A stretch of DNA of 64,000 nt from an uncultured Maribacter sp. (lineage in GTDB: Bacteria; Bacteroidota; Bacteroidia; Flavobacteriales; Flavobacteriaceae), in NCBI RefSeq assembly GCF_947496775.1, contig NZ_CANMDU010000004.1, forward strand, positions 218,426 through 282,425. Reading direction: 5' to 3'. The position numbers and the translations under genes are program-made. Below are positions 22,157-31,450 of this stretch, piece by piece. The notes under the pieces are model-generated. The model was not told the origin of the DNA. It saw only the letters and a list, made by a program, of their open reading frames with translations, and made no database searches. Within the stretch, counting starts at the first letter, position 1; the number at the start of each line of letters is the position of its first letter.

Positions 22157-23173
22157 CTAACTTTTGCTATACAGACTTATAGCTTTTTCCAATTTCTTAG
22201 CAATTCGCTTGCGAAGTCTTTCAGGTTGAATTACTTCAATAGCATCACCAAAACCCAAAATCAAACGTTCCAATTCAAAGTTGATTTTCACTTTGATATT
22301 TACTTCAACACTTCCATCTTCATTTTCTTTTTCAATAATCTGTGAATGATGTAAAGGTTTAGTGACGACATAAGGAGCATTGTATTTGTCAATCCATAAT
22401 TTAATATTAGAAGCCCGTTCCCCTTGGTTAACGGTCACACCTACTATGTCTTTATAAAAGCTGTCTGCATCAAATTCATAGTTGGAATATGGAGTTGTGA
22501 AATCATAGTCAATGGAAATGATTCGGTCAAGGGCCAGATTTACTATGCCCATGTTCTTATTTCCCATCCCAATCAGAAACCATCTGTTGTTAAATTCCTT
22601 CAATAAACAGGGGTGAAAAGTAATTACATTAGCCGTAGCAGCTTTAAAAGATTTATACTCTAATTTCAAAACCACCTTTTTCTGAATAGCTTGATAGAGT
22701 TCGTCAAGCCAATGGAGTCCTTTGAGATTCTCGTTTTTATCTAAATGAATAATGGAGGATTGATGCGTCTTCTCCGTATATACTTTATCTTCTAACCGTT
22801 GAATAATTCCACCCAGTTCTGAAAACAAAGAAAAATCTTTAAACTGCTTTAGCATTTCCACCGTTTCGGAAAGCACATTCATGTCGTTCTCGGTTATCGG
22901 GATATCTGTAATGGAATAATCCTCATCTTCGTATTTGTAATACTTTCTATCATAAGCAACAATTGGAGCATTGTAACCTAGTTTATCACCGCGCATCAAC
23001 TGAATATCGAGTTGCACGGTACGTTTACTTACGTTCACTTCCCTACCCTCGTATTCGTGTAGGGCATCTGAACAGGCCTCTATCAAATCATTCAGAGTCC
23101 ATTGCCGATAGTTATTTTGAAGGCATTTGTCAATAGTTTTGTATCGGATTAGAGCGTTTTTGTTTAGGGCCAT
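22157..23173 (-). CDS. HTH + WYL-domain transcriptional regulator (WCX-like C-terminus)
   Basis: A 338-aa product with an N-terminal DeoR-like HTH (KRTVQLDIQLMR). A central WYL-type domain carries the WFL signature (NRWFLIGM). The architecture matches WYL regulators associated with defence and repair loci. Confidence 0.75.
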   Translation of the reverse strand: MALNKNALIRYKTIDKCLQNNYRQWTLNDLIEACSDALHEYEGREVNVSKRTVQLDIQLMRGDKLGYNAPIVAYDRKYYKYEDEDYSITDIPITENDMNVLSETVEMLKQFKDFSLFSELGGIIQRLEDKVYTEKTHQSSIIHLDKNENLKGLHWLDELYQAIQKKVVLKLEYKSFKAATANVITFHPCLLKEFNNRWFLIGMGNKNMGIVNLALDRIISIDYDFTTPYSNYEFDADSFYKDIVGVTVNQGERASNIKLWIDKYNAPYVVTKPLHHSQIIEKENEDGSVEVNIKVKINFELERLILGFGDAIEVIQPERLRKRIAKKLEKAISLYSKS

Positions 23174-23398: not shown

Positions 23399-24811
<1,413 letters not shown>

Positions 24812-24836: not shown

Positions 24837-26219
24837 ATGGAAAATTCACAAAATACAAGGCATACAATCTTTGAAGAAGAAGCTTTCCAAAGATTATTAA
24901 AAGAAATAGAACAGAATAATGGAACAGCTATGTTGATAGGTGGAGCCGTTATTGATAACATCAATGGATTAGAAGTAAAAGATATAGATATTGAAGTTTA
25001 TGGTCTTTCCTATGTACAACTTGTTGAGTTGATAGAAGGTTTAGATATGAATTGTAATCTGGTAGGTAAATCTTTTGGAGTTATAAAAACAGTCATTGCT
25101 AATTTCGAAATCGATATGTCAATCCCTAGAAGAGAAAATAAAGTAGGGATAGGTCACAAAGGATTTACCGTTGAATTAGATGCGAAAATGACGCCAAAAG
25201 AAGCAGGTAAAAGAAGAGACCTCACTATTAATAGCATGTATCTAAACTTACATACTGGAGAATTGGTGGATCCATATAATGGGTTGGCAGATTTAGAAAA
25301 AGGAATACTTAGAGCCACGAATGAACATACTTTTATAGAAGACCCTTTACGAGTTTTACGTATTATGCAGCTTTTACCTAGAAAAGGTAAATTAGTAGCA
25401 AAAGAAACGCTAGAGATTTGTAAAAAAATGGTTGAATTTTTTTCTGAATTACAAGCGGAACGCATTTTTGTAGAGTGGGAAAAGTTATTACTAAAAGCTG
25501 AAAGACCTTCTATTGGATTAGAGTTCTTAAAAGCTTCGGGTTGGTTAAAACATTTTCCTGAATTACAAAATTTAGTAGGATGTCCACAAAATCCTATTTG
25601 GCATCCTGAAGGAGATGTTTGGGTGCATACTTGTATGGTTATAGACAATGCGGCTAAACTAAGAGATTTGGTGCCTGAGGATTGGCGGTTAACTTATATG
25701 TTTGGTGCATTGCTACATGACATTGGAAAACCATCAACCACCACACCAGAACTAACGGCTAATGGGCATGATGTTGCAGGAATTCCTTTAGCTGAAACAT
25801 TTATGAAAAGAATTACTAATAATAAGTCACTTATAGAAAGAGTGAGTACAATTGTTGGGTTACACATGAGAGCAGGGCAATTATTTAATTCTAAGGCCAA
25901 AGAGTCTGCTTGGAAACGTCTGCATAATAAATGTAGGTTAGATATTTTAGGATGGCAAAGCAAAGCTGATTCAGCGGGAAGAACTGGTAGAAATGTTATG
26001 TTAGATAAGCATGGAGCATCTGAAAAGTGTTTTGAGCTATTTAAAGAATTTGGTAAAAAAGAGATTCAACGTGTTATTCTGGGTAGAGATTTAATTGCTT
26101 TAGGTCTAAAACCATCCGAAAAATTCGGAGTGATTTTAGACGATTGTTATAAAAAACAACTTGATGGTGCTAGTCGAGAAGAAATTCTACTTAACCTAAA
26201 AAATGCTTCTTTAAAATAA
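24837..26219 (+). CDS. CCA-adding enzyme-like class II nucleotidyltransferase with C-terminal HD phosphohydrolase domain
   Basis: The head-domain motif is GGAVIDNINGLEVKDIDIEV, with RRDLTINSMY and an HD motif (LLHDIGKP). It lies 25 bp downstream of rtcB1, suggesting an operon. Confidence 0.75.
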   Translation: MENSQNTRHTIFEEEAFQRLLKEIEQNNGTAMLIGGAVIDNINGLEVKDIDIEVYGLSYVQLVELIEGLDMNCNLVGKSFGVIKTVIANFEIDMSIPRRENKVGIGHKGFTVELDAKMTPKEAGKRRDLTINSMYLNLHTGELVDPYNGLADLEKGILRATNEHTFIEDPLRVLRIMQLLPRKGKLVAKETLEICKKMVEFFSELQAERIFVEWEKLLLKAERPSIGLEFLKASGWLKHFPELQNLVGCPQNPIWHPEGDVWVHTCMVIDNAAKLRDLVPEDWRLTYMFGALLHDIGKPSTTTPELTANGHDVAGIPLAETFMKRITNNKSLIERVSTIVGLHMRAGQLFNSKAKESAWKRLHNKCRLDILGWQSKADSAGRTGRNVMLDKHGASEKCFELFKEFGKKEIQRVILGRDLIALGLKPSEKFGVILDDCYKKQLDGASREEILLNLKNASLK

Positions 26220-26317: not shown

Positions 26318-26608
26318 ATGATGAATTGGAAAATTCAAAAATTGCAAGATGGTGAGACTATCATTTCAAAAGAACCTGGTAATTCTATGTTACCTATACT
26401 AAAATCTAAACAACCTGTTAGGCTTGCGCCAATAAGTTGGGAAAATTGTAAGGTAGGTGATATTGTATTCTGTAAAGTACGTGGAAATGTATTTACGCAC
26501 CTTGTAAAAGGAAAAAGTGACAAACGCGGTTTACTCATTGGTAATAATAGCGGTAGAATTAACGGATGGACCAAAAATGTGTATGGTAAAGTAATAGAAA
26601 TATTATAG
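26318..26608 (+). CDS. Standalone S24 (LexA/UmuD-like) serine peptidase domain protein
   Basis: A 96-aa product with GNSMLP (G-x-SM catalytic Ser motif) and a downstream GDIVF...NVFTHLVKGK (Lys dyad region). The pattern parallels the LexA C-terminal domain. Confidence 0.5.
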   Translation: MMNWKIQKLQDGETIISKEPGNSMLPILKSKQPVRLAPISWENCKVGDIVFCKVRGNVFTHLVKGKSDKRGLLIGNNSGRINGWTKNVYGKVIEIL

Positions 26609-26758
26609 GCATCATACCACATTTTATTCTTTAAATTTTAAAAGTAAATCATAAAAACAAAGTACATGCTAAATCATTTTAATCACATACCGGACGCTAA
26701 AAAGCTAAAATTGCATCGAATTGATGGGTAGATACTATTGAAAACAGATACATAACTA

Positions 26759-26787
26759 GAGCGTCCAAGATATTGGGCGCTTTTTTT
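26759..26787 (+). terminator. Intrinsic terminator AGCGTCCAA-GATAT-TTGGGCGCT-T7 (element A)
   Basis: A 9-bp stem with one G.U pair precedes a T7 run. An upstream GGACGCT (26692-26698) can alternatively pair with the 5' stem arm. Confidence 0.7.
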
Positions 26788-27139
26788 ATGTAAATTTTTT
26801 AGAGAATTCTCAAAATTCTAAAAGAATGCCATTTGAAAGCTAAGCATTTGAAAAACAGCAAATTGATGAATAATGCTGCTATCTGTTAACTAACGGACAG
26901 GCTATCTTATGTCTAAATTTAACCGCAAACAATTGATTGTCAGTAATTTATATTTAATTTTATTTGTGTAATTCAAATATCCGTTTTAGATTTGCACCAG
27001 AATTAAACAATAACATTTTTAACTGAAGTATATATGACAATTTCAATCACATATCAAAAAACACTACAAGCACCAGGTGCAATTGTAGTGTCGCTTCAGG
27101 ACTTCATACACGCATAGCGCTACTCGCAATATGATAGAA

Positions 27140-27171
27140 AGTCCGAAGCTCCAAAGTTTCGGACTTTTTTT
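27140..27171 (+). terminator. Intrinsic terminator AGTCCGAA-N10-TTCGGACT-T7 about 100 bp upstream of rtcB2
   Basis: A perfect 8-bp stem is followed by T7. Confidence 0.75.
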
Positions 27172-27228
27172 ATGCCCTTCTTTTTCGAGGCACAACTTTC
27201 CGAATTAACATATCAAATCTAGTATGGT

Positions 27229-27242
27229 TTCCATAAATGGAA
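27229..27242. promoter_or_regulatory. Palindrome TTCCATAAATGGAA 29 bp upstream of rtcB2 start (candidate operator)
   Basis: A perfect 6-2-6 inverted repeat read from the sequence. Confidence 0.3.
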
Positions 27243-27270
27243 CAGCCATCCTATTCCTAAAATTAAAATC

Positions 27271-28662
27271 ATGGGAAAGAAATTAAGCGGAAAAGACCTA
27301 ATTAAATTGGGATTTCCAAAGAACAATAGTATCAACATTACATTAGGTCAAATCAATCGGTATCACAAACGAGTAAAGAAAGAACAGATACTGAGAGAAG
27401 CCAAAAAAGTATTGTTACATCCTGAAAACTATAAAGGTGATGGGGTTTGGGGTAAGATTGCTGAAAGTTTGGTAGATCCTGTAATAGTGAAAAAGCATGC
27501 ACTCAAAGCGGTACGCGCACCATTTCATATTTATGGTGAAAATGAAATTGAAGAACAAGCCAAGTATCAATTGTATGATGCCTTAAAACTTCCAGTTTCT
27601 GTTGCCGGCGCATTGATGCCAGATGCACATTCTGGTTATGGTTTACCCATTGGTGGTGTTTTGGCAACGAAGAATTCGGTGATTCCTTATGGAGTAGGCG
27701 TTGATATCGGTTGTAGAATGTGTTTGACTATTTATCCTATTCCAGTCTCTTATCTGAAAGGAAAGAAACATCAATTGTCGAACATCCTTTCTGAGCATAC
27801 CAAATTCGGAATGCGAGAAACGCATCAAATAAAACATGACCATGAAATCTTTGAAAGAGATGAATTTAACGACATCCCTTTGGTAAAAAGATTGAAAGAC
27901 AAAGCCTATAAGCAATTAGGAACCTCAGGTGGAGGAAATCATTTTGTCGAGTTCGGAAGTGTTTCTATAATGGATGCAAAAAACGAATGGGGATTAAAAT
28001 CTGGAGAATATCTAGGCATATTATCTCACAGCGGTTCACGAGGGTTGGGTGCAAATATTGCAAAGCACTATACCTATTTGGCAACTAAGCAATGTCCGTT
28101 ACCAAAGCAAGTACAACACTTGGCTTGGTTAGATTTAAATACGCACGACGGGCAAGAATATTGGTTAGCTATGAATTTAGCTGGCGATTATGCAACCGCA
28201 TGTCATGATAATATTCACAAGCGTCTGGCCAAATTAATTGGAGAAAAAGCGGTGGCAAAAATTGACAATCATCACAATTTCGCTTGGAAAGAAGAGGTAA
28301 ACGGCGAAGAATGCATTGTGCACAGAAAAGGAGCTACACCAGCAGGGAAAGGAGTATTGGGGATTATACCTGGCTCAATGACCGCTCCTGGTTACATCGT
28401 AAAAGGTTTGGGTAACAAGGAGAGTTTACACTCTGCTTCCCACGGTGCAGGACGTCTTTTTTCAAGACGAAAGTGTAAAGAAACGTTTACTCGCAGCGAG
28501 ATTAAAAAGCAATTAGACGCAAATGAGGTAAGCCTTATAGGTGGAGGAATTGATGAAGCACCAATGGCCTACAAAAACATTGAAAAGGTCATGGCAAATC
28601 AACAAGAATTGGTTGAAGTACTCGGAACCTTTACACCCAAAATAGTGCGAATGGATAAATAA
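27271..28662 (+). CDS. rtcB: RtcB-family RNA ligase (paralog 2, PrfH-associated 'RtcB2' type)
   Basis: RtcB motifs are present: MPDAHSGYG, DIGCRMC, GGGNHF, HSGSRG, HHNFAW and SHGAGR. It lies immediately upstream of a prfH-like gene. Confidence 0.85.
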   Translation: MGKKLSGKDLIKLGFPKNNSINITLGQINRYHKRVKKEQILREAKKVLLHPENYKGDGVWGKIAESLVDPVIVKKHALKAVRAPFHIYGENEIEEQAKYQLYDALKLPVSVAGALMPDAHSGYGLPIGGVLATKNSVIPYGVGVDIGCRMCLTIYPIPVSYLKGKKHQLSNILSEHTKFGMRETHQIKHDHEIFERDEFNDIPLVKRLKDKAYKQLGTSGGGNHFVEFGSVSIMDAKNEWGLKSGEYLGILSHSGSRGLGANIAKHYTYLATKQCPLPKQVQHLAWLDLNTHDGQEYWLAMNLAGDYATACHDNIHKRLAKLIGEKAVAKIDNHHNFAWKEEVNGEECIVHRKGATPAGKGVLGIIPGSMTAPGYIVKGLGNKESLHSASHGAGRLFSRRKCKETFTRSEIKKQLDANEVSLIGGGIDEAPMAYKNIEKVMANQQELVEVLGTFTPKIVRMDK

Positions 28663-28757
28663 CAGATAGTAGTTAGCGACGGTATTCATAAAGCATATTG
28701 AAAACCTAAGATTATTGGAATACTAATGCTGGCTACTTTTTTTTAAAGAAAGAAAAA

Positions 28758-29450
28758 ATGGAAAAAATAATACAAATAACAGCAGGAAGAGGCCCAGCAG
28801 AATGTAGCTGGGTTGTTTCCCAAGTGCTTAGGAAATTCTTGCAAGAAGCCAAGACTGAAGGGTTTCAGTATGTCATCTTGCAAAGAGAAAAAGGCAATCA
28901 AAATGGAACGATACAATCAGTCAGCATCCGCTTGAAAGGGGCAACCCTAGAAGTTTTTTTAGCTACTTGGTTAGGAACAATTCAATGGATTGGCAACTCA
29001 ACTTTTCGAAAATACCACAAACGTAAAAACTGGTTTATCGGAGCTTTCGAATTGAAATTGCCACAGCATTCTGAAATATGTGACAGAGATATCTCTTTTC
29101 AAACGATGAGAAGTGCAGGTCCTGGTGGTCAGAATGTAAATAAGGTAAACTCAGCCGTACGGGCAATTCATACCCCCACAGGAGTACAAGTAGTTGCCAT
29201 GGATAGTCGTTCGCAACATCAAAACAAAAAACTTGCGATAGCCCGATTAAAAGAAAAAGCAAACGAGGCTAACATAGAAAAGCTTAAAGAAAGGATGACG
29301 GACCAATGGGAAAATCATCTGAATATAGAACGCGGAAATCCGGTCCGGATTTTTAAAGGAACCGATTTCAAACACCAAAAAGAAAATAAAAGCTTTAAAC
29401 CAAAACGGCAAAAGCTAAAAAACGATTTAAAACAACAAAAATGGGACTAA
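28758..29450 (+). CDS. prfH: PrfH-like peptide chain release factor homologue (GGQ peptidyl-tRNA hydrolase domain, lacks RF domain 1)
   Basis: A 230-aa product with a GPAECS N-terminal signature like PrfH GPEEC. The GGQ motif sits in RSAGPGGQNVNKV. Pairing with rtcB is the hallmark of rtcB2-prfH modules. Confidence 0.8.
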   Translation: MEKIIQITAGRGPAECSWVVSQVLRKFLQEAKTEGFQYVILQREKGNQNGTIQSVSIRLKGATLEVFLATWLGTIQWIGNSTFRKYHKRKNWFIGAFELKLPQHSEICDRDISFQTMRSAGPGGQNVNKVNSAVRAIHTPTGVQVVAMDSRSQHQNKKLAIARLKEKANEANIEKLKERMTDQWENHLNIERGNPVRIFKGTDFKHQKENKSFKPKRQKLKNDLKQQKWD

Positions 29451-29986
29451 CAATAGCCGATACCTATTATTTAAAAGCAAAGGCGGCATCTGGTTATGAT
29501 TGGGACGAAGTTTGTGAATCACTGAACTACGCCCTGTCCTACGATGAAAATCATTGTGCCTCCCTTTGTCTTTTAGGTAAAGTTTATGCTCGAAATTTGA
29601 ATCAGTATTCGGAAGCATTCGATTGCTTTGATAGGGTGATAGCAATTGATACTTATAATATAGATGTATACCCATTATATGCTAAGTATTTAATCTGGGC
29701 GGATGAAAATGAAAAGGCGTTTCGATTAATTGAATTTGCTCTTTCTATAAAAGGTATAGATAAAGCTCAGCTGTACTGTATTTCGGCCTATGCATTAGAA
29801 ACAAATGGAAATTATAAGGTTGCGCTGCAACATTTAAAAGAAGCAAAAAGACTTACCTATAACAATGACTATATGTTTTATATAGTTGATGAAGAAAATA
29901 GAATTAAAAAGAAATTGAAATTGGATAAATCTAAAGCACAAAAGAAGAAATTATCAACTAAAAAAAGGAAGAAAAAGAACAAATAG
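29441..29986 (+). CDS. TPR-repeat protein with lysine-rich C-terminal tail, translationally coupled to prfH
   Basis: A 181-aa product with TPR-like helical repeats. The C-terminal tail KKKLKLDKSKAQKKKLSTKKRKKKNK is basic. The ATG overlaps the prfH stop (ATGGGACTAA). Confidence 0.6.
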   Translation: MGLTIADTYYLKAKAASGYDWDEVCESLNYALSYDENHCASLCLLGKVYARNLNQYSEAFDCFDRVIAIDTYNIDVYPLYAKYLIWADENEKAFRLIEFALSIKGIDKAQLYCISAYALETNGNYKVALQHLKEAKRLTYNNDYMFYIVDEENRIKKKLKLDKSKAQKKKLSTKKRKKKNK

Positions 29987-30171
29987 TAGTAACAAAACGT
30001 TTAAAAATAACATCTTTGTAAACAAATGACACCGAGAGAGTTACATATCATCCAACAAATAGAGCTTTGGCTCTTCTATTTTCGCTCAGAATATAGTGAG
30101 CGAAACGGACGCTATGTGACTTTATCCAACAGTTGATTCTATGAAATAACTCGATTAAGCGATAAAATGAA

Positions 30172-30202
30172 AGCGTCCAATTACAATTGGGCGCTTTTTT
30201 TG
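30172..30202 (+). terminator. Intrinsic terminator AGCGTCCAA-TTACAA-TTGGGCGCT-T7 (element B, homologous to element A)
   Basis: It has the same 9-bp stem, including the same G.U position, as 26759-26787. GGACGCT lies upstream at 30107-30113. Confidence 0.7.
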
Positions 30203-30377
30203 TGGAATAATTTTAAACAATTGAATGAGAAGTAAAAAAATACAAAACTAGATAGTTGAATTACGAAACAATTGATATACAGGCGATTGTAGCACATATT
30301 CGAAATGCTTTTCTGCATTCATGAGCAACGATTTATAAAATAAAGAATAGGCGAACTAATCCTGTCTGTTCCACCAT

Positions 30378-30450
30378 AAGAGTATAGTTCAATTGGATAG
30401 AACGCTGGGCTACGAACCCAGAAATGCGAGTTCGAGTCTTGCTACTTCTG
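30378..30450 (+). tRNA. tRNA-Arg(ACG), hand-folded; A2.C71 mismatch and G.U in T-stem
   Basis: The D-arm is TAGTTCAATTGGATAGAAC, the anticodon stem CTGGG/CCCAG has loop CTACGAA, and the T-loop is GTTCGAGTC. A hairpin AACTACGCA/TGCGTAGTT lies downstream at 30471-30495. Confidence 0.55.
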
Positions 30451-30525
30451 CTAAAAACAAAAGAAATCTGAACTACGCATAATAATTGCGTAGTTATGTT
30501 TCAGTTTTGTGAAGTAATTGGAAAA

Positions 30526-30730
30526 TACCTCTTTAGCTTAAAAGGAAGAGCTGTGGTAAAAGATATTGATCGTAGCCACGGAGTGATTGGAAGATGTTGT
30601 TAGCGGCGTGCCTGCTAATGAATAGAATTTGCAGAAGCACCGAAATAGTCAAGTACCAAAGTAGGGAAGCGCATTTATAGCCAATCTGTTCGTTTCGACG
30701 AAAGTGCCAGTTCGAATCTGGCAAGAGGTA
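30526..30730 (+). ncRNA. Split tRNA-like element: 5' acceptor+D-arm (30526-30550) and T-arm+3' acceptor (30706-30730) separated by ~150 nt
   Basis: The 5' side is ACCTCTT-TA-GCTT-AAAAGGAA-GAGC. The 3' side is GCCAG-TTCGAAT-CTGGC-AAGAGGT-A, with perfectly complementary 7-bp acceptor strands. No canonical anticodon arm is found between them. Confidence 0.35.
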
Positions 30731-30905
30731 CAAAGTTCTTTGAAAAGAAATTTCTGCTTAGGCAGGATTAACAATATCAAGCTGGTCTTGTTGGGTGTTT
30801 CTGTAGGGCACTATTGTATGAAGTTTTACTGAGAAGTATAATGTCTTCATGTATAACTTGACTTGATGGTTTCGATTGTTTACCAAAAAACAATCTCCGC
30901 GCTGT

Positions 30906-30935
30906 GGGTCATGGGTTCGAATCCCATCGGTTCTG
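30906..30935 (+). other. tRNA 3'-part fragment (variable loop + T-arm ATGGG-TTCGAAT-CCCAT + acceptor 3' strand CGGTTCT-G) lacking a cognate 5' half upstream
   Basis: It has a canonical T-arm, but no D-arm or anticodon arm lies within 90 nt upstream. Confidence 0.5.
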
Positions 30936-30938
30936 AAA

Positions 30939-31004
30939 AGAACCGTAGTTCAGAGGTTAGAACAACAGACGTAGGTGTCATGGGTTCGATTCCCATCAGG
31001 CTTG
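30939..31004 (+). pseudogene. Degenerate/mosaic tRNA: 5' acceptor AGAACCG + D-arm, truncated anticodon region, T-arm, non-matching 3' acceptor CAGGCTT
   Basis: It is 66 nt long. Its 5' acceptor complements the 3' acceptor of the preceding fragment, not its own. Only 16 nt lie between the D-arm and the T-arm. Confidence 0.45.
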
Positions 31005-31005
31005 A

Positions 31006-31048
31006 AAACCTGTAGCTCAGTTGGTAGAGCACTACACTTTTAATGTAG
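31006..31048 (+). pseudogene. tRNA-Lys(UUU) 5' portion (acceptor AAACCTG, D-arm TAGCTCAGTTGGTAGAGC, anticodon stem-loop CTACA-CTTTTAA-TGTAG) without canonical T-arm/3' acceptor
   Basis: The downstream sequence gives the hairpin ATGGA-CTGAAAA-TCCAT but no matching acceptor strand. Its 5' acceptor nearly complements the 3' acceptor of the preceding element. Confidence 0.45.
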
Positions 31049-31450
31049 GTTATGGACTGAAAATCCATTTTCAACAAGAAGGTCACTTGTAAAAAGACCA
31101 CCGGATGGTCACTCCGTATAATTGACAAAAACAGTAGTTGTACATCGGTCATTATTTCCTAAAGAGGAGTAAAGACAATCATGAAGCTACTTTGAAATGG
31201 TGATTTTTTTGATGTGAAAGGCAAATCCTTTTTTAGTCATCCTTCCTTCTGGAAAACTGATAACAATTTTATTAGTAAGACAATCGGATGCATGCTATAA
31301 AACGAATTGTAACGAGTATCAAAAACCAGTATTTCCGTATCAGAAAGATGATATGCCCCTGCTGTTTTTTTAAATAGAACAAATAGTAATACATGATAAT
31401 AGTTTAACCCGTTCGTCCGTCACTAGACTGGCGGACACAAATTTTAAGTA

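Follow-up and report, generated by a model that had tools for sequence, protein, structure and literature searches.

Two paralogous terminator elements beside an RtcB2-PrfH-TPR operon are candidate translation-sensing attenuators in Flavobacteriaceae

Why should a ribosome-repair operon lie between two copies of the same intrinsic terminator, each preceded by a complement of its own 5′ arm? The question is raised by a 64,000-nt stretch of DNA (the window, whose coordinates are used throughout) from an uncultured Maribacter sp. (assembly GCF_947496775.1, contig NZ_CANMDU010000004.1, positions 218,426 to 282,425), in which genes for RtcB2, PrfH and a TPR protein are flanked by element A (26692-26787), located 5′ of the RtcB2 cassette, and element B (30107-30202), located 3′ of the TPR gene. 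Both elements are on the + strand, as are all features below unless stated otherwise. A preliminary description of this DNA regarded them as homologous elements of about 95 nt, perhaps attenuators and perhaps the boundaries of an inserted cassette. Comparison of related loci indicates that A and B are ancient paralogs of one family, and we propose that they act in cis as translation-sensing conditional terminators, a reading to which we assign a probability of about one half.

A and B share one order of segments: GGACGCT (X), a spacer of 58-61 nt, AGCGTCCAA (with X′), a loop, TTGGGCGCT (with X″) and a run of seven Ts. In A, X (26692-26698) would be the 5′ strand of an antiterminator; X′ (AGCGTCC, 26760-26766) is followed by AA, such that AGCGTCCAA spans 26760-26768, and then by the loop GATA; X″, which is TT plus GGGCGCT, or TTGGGCGCT (26773-26781), leads into the T-run (26781-26787). 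The intrinsic terminator of A, AGAGCGTCCAA/GATA/TTGGGCGCTTT plus the T-run, occupies 26758-26787, and its 5′ arm includes X′. In B, the putative antiterminator strand X (GGACGCT) is at 30107-30113, X′ is at 30172-30178 within AGCGTCCAA (30172-30180), the loop is TACA, X″ (GGGCGCT) is at 30189-30195, where TTGGGCGCT ends, and the T-run is at 30195-30201; the intrinsic terminator, AAAGCGTCCAAT/TACA/ATTGGGCGCTTT plus the T-run (30170-30201), again includes X′ in its 5′ arm. Both terminators have stems of 11-12 bp followed by seven Ts, a hairpin energy of about -15.3 kcal/mol and an identical U.G wobble, while the 58-61 nt between X and X′ cannot be aligned between A and B. The composite terminator pattern is present two times, where 100 shuffles predict 0.00, and of the five GGACGCT/AGCGTCC sites found (1.6 expected), four are the X and X′ segments of A and B. 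Thus, the claim of two homologous terminator elements with an unconserved spacer is borne out. ATG or GTG nearly always stands directly 3′ of the terminator T-run (26788-26790, 27172-27174, 30202-30204 and most related copies), and in many A-type copies CAUAAAAA, located 5′ of X, could pair with UUUUUAUG, located 3′ of X″.

We built a covariance model of the family from 22 copies and ran it over 65 loci. Applied to the 64 kb window with filters off, it retrieved only A and B (77 and 67.5 bits), and the next sense-strand match scored 22 bits. A mismatch search with a fixed 5-nt loop gave no matches, which is uninformative because the real loops are of 4 and 6 nt. Neither element matched an Rfam 15 family at the gathering threshold: Phe_leader reached 19.9 and 23.9 bits against a required 55, and MicC 25.9 bits against 90, with E values above 1. 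We discarded the Rfam matches to Phe_leader, Thr_leader, MicC and STnc240, since all have E values of at least 0.45, lie far under their gathering scores and are driven by the terminator. A tRNA-like reading of the 73-76 nt segments from X to X′, with a 7-bp "acceptor" stem, was also rejected, since ARAGORN and Rfam find nothing there. The family has no entry in Rfam, and the literature searched gave no description of it.

The loci compared (numbered L001 and so on) comprised 80 around PrfH homologs, five obtained by exact-protein lookup and 120 metagenomic loci with the bare terminator. Copies of the A type and the B type are found at two constant syntenic positions in Zobellia, Maribacter, Allomuricauda, Aquimarina, Kordia, Tenacibaculum, Polaribacter and Dokdonia. 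A-type copies start with GGACGCUGAAAAGC and lie 5′ of the RtcB2 promoter; B-type copies start with GGACGCUAUGUGAC or GGRCGUUUUGUG and lie 3′ of the TPR gene. Each type forms its own orthologous group across genera, and hence the duplication must be old; the shared ancestry suggested earlier for the two elements thus extends to one family in at least eight genera. B is missing from M. forsetii and Allomuricauda, which keep the cassette and lack the tRNA array that follows B in other relatives, indicating that B belongs to the tRNA-array module and not to the cassette. Among the 65 loci, the covariance model detected members in these genera only, and none at loci from Flavobacterium, Chryseobacterium, Capnocytophaga and Cytophagia, although RtcB2-PrfH-TPR is present there, and no A/B-like unit was found 5′ of the RtcB2 leader (described below) in Flavobacterium or Chryseobacterium, where candidate terminators follow ordinary genes. 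As for a generic repeat, many unrelated loci do carry the bare stem, AGCGTCCA...TGGRCGCTTTT: it is present in at least 120 metagenomic contigs, including some from the human gut, a number that by our own estimate is roughly the chance expectation for a database of that size; however, the unrelated copies lack X, and every X-bearing copy sits in the island context. One covariance-model match (L023, 9220-9321) was set aside as the ordinary terminator of an inserted gene, without X.

An ATG-initiated open reading frame (ORF) spans X in all 31 distinct copies, which represent about nine lineages of each type, and its stop codon lies 25-40 nt 5′ of X′. The leader ORF of A (26666-26731; 21 codons plus TAG, encoding MLNHFNHIPDAKKLKLHRIDG) runs through X and stops in the loop of an internal hairpin (26721-26741). 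That of B (30026-30136; 36 codons plus TGA) also runs through X and contains, before X, two hairpins (30061-30074 and 30080-30105) that had been noted correctly in the preliminary description; two such hairpins recur, with differing sequences, in the B-type ORFs of other genera. In every A-type copy the ATG is 25-27 nt 5′ of X and the ORF has 18-21 codons, and in every B-type copy these values are 77-97 nt and 36-42 codons. With the ATG fixed, the chance of such an ORF per copy, estimated from shuffles, is 0.24-0.44 for A and 0.04-0.07 for B. The frame in which X is read varies (0, 1 or 2), and the peptide there is unconserved (Asp-Ala, Gly-Arg or Arg-Thr). Hence, it is translation that is conserved, not the peptide.

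The leader peptides contain no codon runs. All that recurs in them is a His, Tyr or Asn residue at codon 6-7: codon 7 is His in 24 of the 31 distinct copies and Tyr in two, and Kordia has Asn at codon 6 (window, 26684-26689 and 30043-30049). Codons for these three amino acids are read by queuosine tRNAs. A uniform freeing of X by stalling at His codon 7 was considered and rejected, since it misfits the A-type geometry; by our own estimate from typical footprint sizes, X would be covered once codon 7 occupied the ribosomal A site. The motif ACAUA is found 17-24 nt after the AUG in A/B leaders, and ACAUAUC is also present in the RtcB2 leader of the window; UACAU is a MazF-type site.

Promoter elements accompany both types. 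The -7 box of B, CATCTTTG (30011-30018), is 7 nt 5′ of the leader ATG, and in most B-type copies a conserved (C/T)AT(A/C)TTTG precedes the ATG by 7-9 nt, the distance being 17-18 nt in L101 and L147. Given a -7 box so near the ATG, B-type leader mRNAs are predicted to be leaderless or almost leaderless. In A-type copies, an A-rich leader comes before the ATG, and most genera also have a CATATTTGCA -7 box about 50 nt 5′ of the ATG; in the window this box is degenerate (CACATTTTA, 26618-26626).

X and X′ are complementary over 7 bp. Across the 31 distinct copies, 212 of 217 cells of the pairing are standard pairs (197 Watson-Crick and 15 G.U), and the five mismatches all fall in the two outer pairs. 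Shifting X by 1-3 nt lowers the pairing to 23-44%, and none of 4925 other upstream 7-mers tested pairs fully with X′. In an unbiased scan, the best partner of X′ was located at -60 to -69 in every sense island copy, with six or seven of seven positions paired (five in Polaribacter), whereas ten antisense readings of palindromic stems, used as controls, gave at most five paired positions, at random offsets. The variants GGACGUU, GGGCGCU, GGGCGUU and GGAUGCU retain pairing through G.U, and variation in X is almost confined to such G.U-compatible changes. X′ is invariant outside Polaribacter. In 22 sequences the X′:X″ stem is fully (100%) paired, and one compensatory change is seen in it. Folding predicts that X:X′ is the minimum free-energy structure of nascent A and B RNA before X″ is made. 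Once the RNA is full-length, the terminator is the minimum free-energy fold (-22.0 kcal/mol for A and -21.9 kcal/mol for B), and the forced X:X′ forms have energies of -17.1 and -16.7 kcal/mol.

Several observations weigh against a switch of this kind. The antiterminator fold is about 5 kcal/mol less stable than the terminator. No X:X′ position has changed on both sides, and shuffles give the observed value; in Polaribacter (L007), a G-to-A change in X′ is compensated in X″ and not in X. The copies were found via conserved X′ and X″, such that divergent members able to show covariation are under-sampled. An anti-antiterminator segment, meaning a second AGCGTCC-like sequence 5′ of X, was sought in all A/B copies and none was found. 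Lastly, what comes after an A or B unit is a spacer, then a CGGACAGG box, a palindrome and a further promoter and leader, not a gene. The X:X′ antiterminator is thus not proven; the case for it comes from position-specific conservation and wobble-only variation, not from covariation. Of the earlier suggestion that GGACGCT forms an antiterminator, what stands is a specific, position-fixed complement (five to seven of seven positions paired, nearly all six or seven), and what fails to appear is compensatory covariation. The wider idea of an attenuation-type conditional terminator is strengthened by the ORF through X in every copy and by the covarying leader next door, and is likewise unproven.

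That neighbouring leader (27023-27171) is situated between A and RtcB2 and appears, from its pattern of covariation, to be a classical four-segment leader-peptide attenuator. S1 (CUGAAG, 27023-27028) is 5 nt 5′ of the ATG in the window and 2-5 nt across the family; the ORF (27034-27117) has 27 codons, compared with 24-28 across the family; S2 (CUUCAGGACUU, 27094-27104) is inside the ORF; and S3 (27138-27150) and S4 (27155-27167) are the arms of a terminator whose T-run extends to 27171. The leader is found in about 50 loci from Flavobacteriia and Cytophagia. Of the S2:S3 cells, 95.4% are paired and 18 have changed on both sides, a value that 0 of 500 shuffles equalled; for S3:S4 the pairing is 99.0%, and 19 cells have changed on both sides. 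S2 and S4 each covary with the same columns of S3. S1:S2 and the ORF are conserved too, S1:S2 having compensatory changes of C-G versus U-A and A-U versus C-G, and the C-terminus of the peptide is conserved as L-(R/Q)-(G/D)-(L/F). The leader has no match in Rfam 15 and no description in the literature searched, where queries for an attenuator or leader peptide of rtcB or prfH returned nothing relevant. A UUCC(C)GAA box, conserved 35-60 nt 3′ of the terminator in Flavobacteriia and Cytophagia (window, approximately 27207-27215, CTTTCCGAA), has a sequence like that of the S3 core, and in read-through transcripts it could pair with S4.

Both the A/B units and the RtcB2 leader are linked to a recurrent putative operator-promoter module. 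In the window, this module (26893-26994) consists of a CGGACAGG box, a near-palindrome CAATTGATTGTCAG, a -33 element TTTG (26963-26966), a 20-nt spacer and a -7 element TAGATTTG (26987-26994), matching the Bacteroidetes promoter consensus TTTG-N19-21-TAnnTTTG. It is kept 3′ of both A-type and B-type units in relatives. A module of about 100-200 nt, composed of the CGGACAGG box, a AATTGATTATCAAT-like palindrome and a TTTG-N20-TAnnTTTGCA promoter, was observed before each regulated unit (26893-26994; L001, 8560-8675; L137, 620-740). The module is likely to be the operator for a WYL/WCX-domain regulator encoded divergently from the island (22157-23173, - strand; Pfam WCX 4.8e-17, WYL 1.1e-08), whose gene has the same position in Maribacter L201 and Allomuricauda L205; its product is a candidate repressor of the shared modules.

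The family, its synteny, the ORFs, the X:X′ complementarity and the terminators are direct observations; from them we infer that translation decides the fold, and with which polarity. Each unit would comprise a promoter (clear for B, degenerate for A in the window), a translated leader ORF, X within that ORF, and a terminator, with X′ free to pair with X or X″. In the nascent RNA, X:X′ would form first, blocking the terminator, and RNA polymerase would continue. A ribosome that has passed through X, and is at or near the stop codon 25-40 nt 5′ of X′, would prevent X:X′; X′:X″ would then form and transcription would end. Healthy translation would thus give termination, and translation that is absent or arrested early, owing to damaged ribosomes, cleaved tRNAs or inhibitors, would give read-through. 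A precedes the operator, promoter and leader of the RtcB2-PrfH-TPR ribosome-repair operon, and B precedes the same type of module for a spare tRNA array, a module deleted in the window; read-through from A or B may add to, or de-repress, the downstream promoter. At the RtcB2 leader, read-through would require a ribosome held near the start codon, masking S1, as ribosomes with a cleaved decoding centre might be.

Beyond the evidence from the elements themselves, translation-sensing termination is favoured by the neighbouring RtcB2 leader, which has the same logic and S2/S3/S4 covariation to support it, and by the surroundings: an island for RNA repair and translation stress, with a WYL regulator, two RtcB genes, a CCA-adding enzyme, PrfH, a tRNA array and an SPFH protein. 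The proposed polarity fits the biology of the island, as well as the induction by translational stress of the cyanobacterial tRNA array, rtcB and slipin gene (PMC8421152, PMC10272220). If the proposal is correct, damaged translation machinery would report itself, since failure to translate a short leader would turn on its own repair. A and B would be of the ribosome-mediated attenuation type, placed before the ribosome-repair and spare-tRNA modules. Leader ORFs with switchable terminators before both modules constitute a concrete, easily testable hypothesis, which the covarying RtcB2 attenuator strengthens.

A more elaborate surveillance circuit can be imagined, but is doubtful in its full form. 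The near-leaderless A/B ORFs would serve as bait, through a conserved queuosine-tRNA codon (His, Tyr or Asn) or ACAUA/UACAU at codon 7. Ribotoxin damage, whether colicin E3-type cleavage of 16S, attack by E5-type anticodon nucleases or MazF-type cleavage of mRNA, would stop leader translation through X, the terminator would fail, and read-through across the WYL-type operator would help to switch on the repair operon and the tRNA array. The RtcB2 leader would be a second checkpoint, needing a ribosome arrested near the start codon.

Could A and B instead be stand-alone small genes? Their transcripts, of about 120-190 nt, would always end at the terminator and would act in trans as small RNAs or dual-function RNAs, with X:X′ affecting stability rather than termination. 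This alternative is possible, if on balance unlikely. B and most A-type copies have their own -7 boxes, the fold of minimum free energy is the strong terminator, two conserved hairpins are present in B-type copies, and each unit is followed by a separate promoter instead of a gene; in the window, however, no promoter is recognisable between B and the tRNA-Arg gene downstream. The near-invariance of X and X′ would suit a seed for pairing in trans, but X:X′ and X′:X″ are mutually exclusive, as in the covariation-supported RtcB2 leader, and no trans target is known. That all 31 copies keep an ORF open across X, whichever of the three frames is used, also argues for a function of translation in cis.

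Alternatively, A and B might be plain insulating terminators that shield tightly repressed downstream promoters, X being conserved for unrelated reasons. We regard this as very doubtful. It would account for the location of the units, always directly 5′ of an operator-promoter module, and for the lack of covariation support for X:X′. An insulator would need neither an ORF nor a promoter of its own, yet the ORF through X is conserved, X is held at a fixed distance from X′ with only pairing-compatible changes across eight genera, and generic copies of the stem elsewhere lack X. Least credible, and already contradicted, is the view that A and B are direct repeats left by insertion of RtcB2-PrfH-TPR and mark its boundaries, or belong to a dispersed mobile repeat family: they do flank the cassette in the window, and the bare stem does recur in metagenomes, but only the short X, X′ and X″ blocks are common to elements with different interiors, the A-type and B-type copies are distinct orthologous groups at constant positions with only one or two copies per related locus and two in the 64 kb window, the cassette is widespread without them in most Bacteroidota loci, B tracks the tRNA array and is absent where the array is absent, and the unrelated metagenomic matches lack X and are about as numerous as chance would give.

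What would B control? In relatives, B is followed by 7-13 tRNA genes (L201, 8536-10280; L001, 9043-10158; L023, 10157-11451), for Ser, Cys, Tyr, Asp, Pro, Glu, Asn/Lys, Leu, Leu, Arg, Gln, His and Phe, with their own promoter and leader attenuator. A stretch of about 1.75 kb in Maribacter L201 (8536-10280; compare window 30292-30359), containing the operator, promoter, leader and 11 tRNA genes, has been lost from the window. The array of the window has been deleted except for its last tRNA gene, so the "downstream tRNA cluster" of the preliminary description is a single tRNA-Arg(ACG) gene (30378-30451; ARAGORN; Rfam tRNA 56.5 bits) plus tRNA-like remnants. The B terminator is now 175 nt 5′ of this gene, and no -7 box or promoter is recognisable in between. 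Gating by B of read-through into tRNAs is thus the simplest reading in this window, where B may be the only control element before tRNA-Arg. The array remnant as a whole (30378-31100) includes, after tRNA-Arg(ACG), a chain of tRNA-like modules (30530-31100), namely perfect T-arms, a tRNA-Lys-like 5′ half and partial tRNA matches, and a YrlA-like stretch (30972-31037) that scores 43.4 bits against the Rfam YrlA gathering score of 69. A conserved counterpart of the tRNA-like stretch separates the tRNA array from the SPFH gene in Zobellia, Maribacter, Aquimarina and Kordia. Among the annotated ORFs of the island, none was a Ro/Rsr gene.

Like the trp, his, phe and thr leaders of Enterobacteria, A and B combine a U-run terminator with a short leader ORF that is translated and with two hairpins that exclude each other by using a common strand. 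Unlike them, they have three segments, no regulatory codon runs and no 1:2 anti-antiterminator, are followed by a promoter instead of biosynthetic genes, and occur in Bacteroidota; the scores of A and B with the Rfam Phe_leader and Thr_leader models (20-24 bits, versus a gathering score of 55) derive solely from the terminator. To our knowledge, few cases of leader-peptide attenuation have been described in Bacteroidota; A and B would add to these, and define RNA elements that Rfam lacks. In the leaders of B. subtilis bmrCD/BmrB (PMC4191407) and streptococcal mef/msrD (PMC4335068, PMC10314930), and in that of P. aeruginosa MexXY, which is controlled by a leader peptide (reviewed in PMC12057347), the position of the leader ribosome decides the fate of the terminator, as proposed here, and the output likewise counters translation damage. 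A and B have no sequence relation to these leaders, they would act on a ribosome-repair operon and a tRNA array, not on genes for efflux or ABC-F proteins, B is nearly leaderless, and their function is predicted from sequence. The RtcB2 leader resembles A and B in its island, its promoter type, its leader ORF and an upstream complement of the terminator 5′ arm inside that ORF; it differs in having four segments, S1 before the ATG, the core CCGAAG, a far wider distribution and compensatory covariation.

In Anabaena, translational stress induces a tRNA array together with rtcB and a slipin gene, a regulon under the repressor TrcR (PMC8421152, PMC10272220). There, a silent spare tRNA array is co-regulated with RtcB and an SPFH/slipin gene, as it would be here, but TrcR acts on direct repeats in promoters, no leader ORFs or attenuators are reported, and the phylum is a different one. 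The Salmonella rsr-yrlBA-rtcBA operon, with tRNA-like Y RNAs and RtcR (PMC7790460), similarly joins RtcB to tRNA-like non-coding RNAs, with the caveat that the YrlA match in the window is sub-threshold. It differs in relying on sigma-54 and the RtcR activator with its CARF domain, and in lacking PrfH, whereas the island of the window has no Ro/Rsr among its annotated ORFs. The literature searched does not address control of RtcB2-PrfH expression, and for a stress-induced tRNA array it describes only the cyanobacterial repressor.

The upstream operon of the island encodes an RtcB paralog (23402-24811; Pfam RtcB 2.1e-37) and a nucleotidyltransferase (24837-26219; Pfam PolyA_pol, PolyA_pol_RNAbd and HD) of the CCA-adding/PolyA_pol type, which NCBIfam models for CCA addition and repair match under their cut-offs. 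Next, and preceding A, is an ORF of 96 amino acids (26318-26608) with orthologs 5′ of A in L002, L018, L201 and L202. It had been called an S24 gene; the ORF is present, but its sole match, to Pfam Peptidase_S24, is sub-threshold (E 0.18; 11.9 bits versus 23.3). The cassette itself consists of RtcB2 (27271-28662; Pfam RtcB 3.4e-84), PrfH (28758-29450; Pfam RF-1; NCBIfam TIGR03072 release_prfH, 232.2 bits versus a cut-off of 166.65) and the TPR protein (29441-29986; Pfam TPR), in a gene order conserved in L001-L061. The partner-specific release_rtcB model gives RtcB2 158 bits, under its cut-off of 271.8. PrfH of the window is 91% identical to that of Z. uliginosa; exact-protein lookup returned no record for the TPR protein. 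An SPFH protein is also encoded in the island, after the tRNA-like modules.

At many loci, an extra gene lies between the leader and RtcB2 (L002, L005, L011, L018 and L023; L006, L009, L019 and others). These extra genes are of two unrelated types, with the motifs ...RFYVRIPKGAYRIKYTRAY... and ...EPWRFVLRV.PNMITHYKP.... Further four-segment leaders with a CCGAAG core (S1 GAAGCC, S2 GGCUUCGG) were observed in L137 (780-960), L082 (2090-2220) and L118 (300-440); in metagenomic relatives, such additional leaders precede a second TPR-like gene and the tRNA array. Hence, this type of attenuator is reused within one island. The islands of relatives also add RlaP nucleotidyltransferases, DUF434 and an RNase T-like protein.

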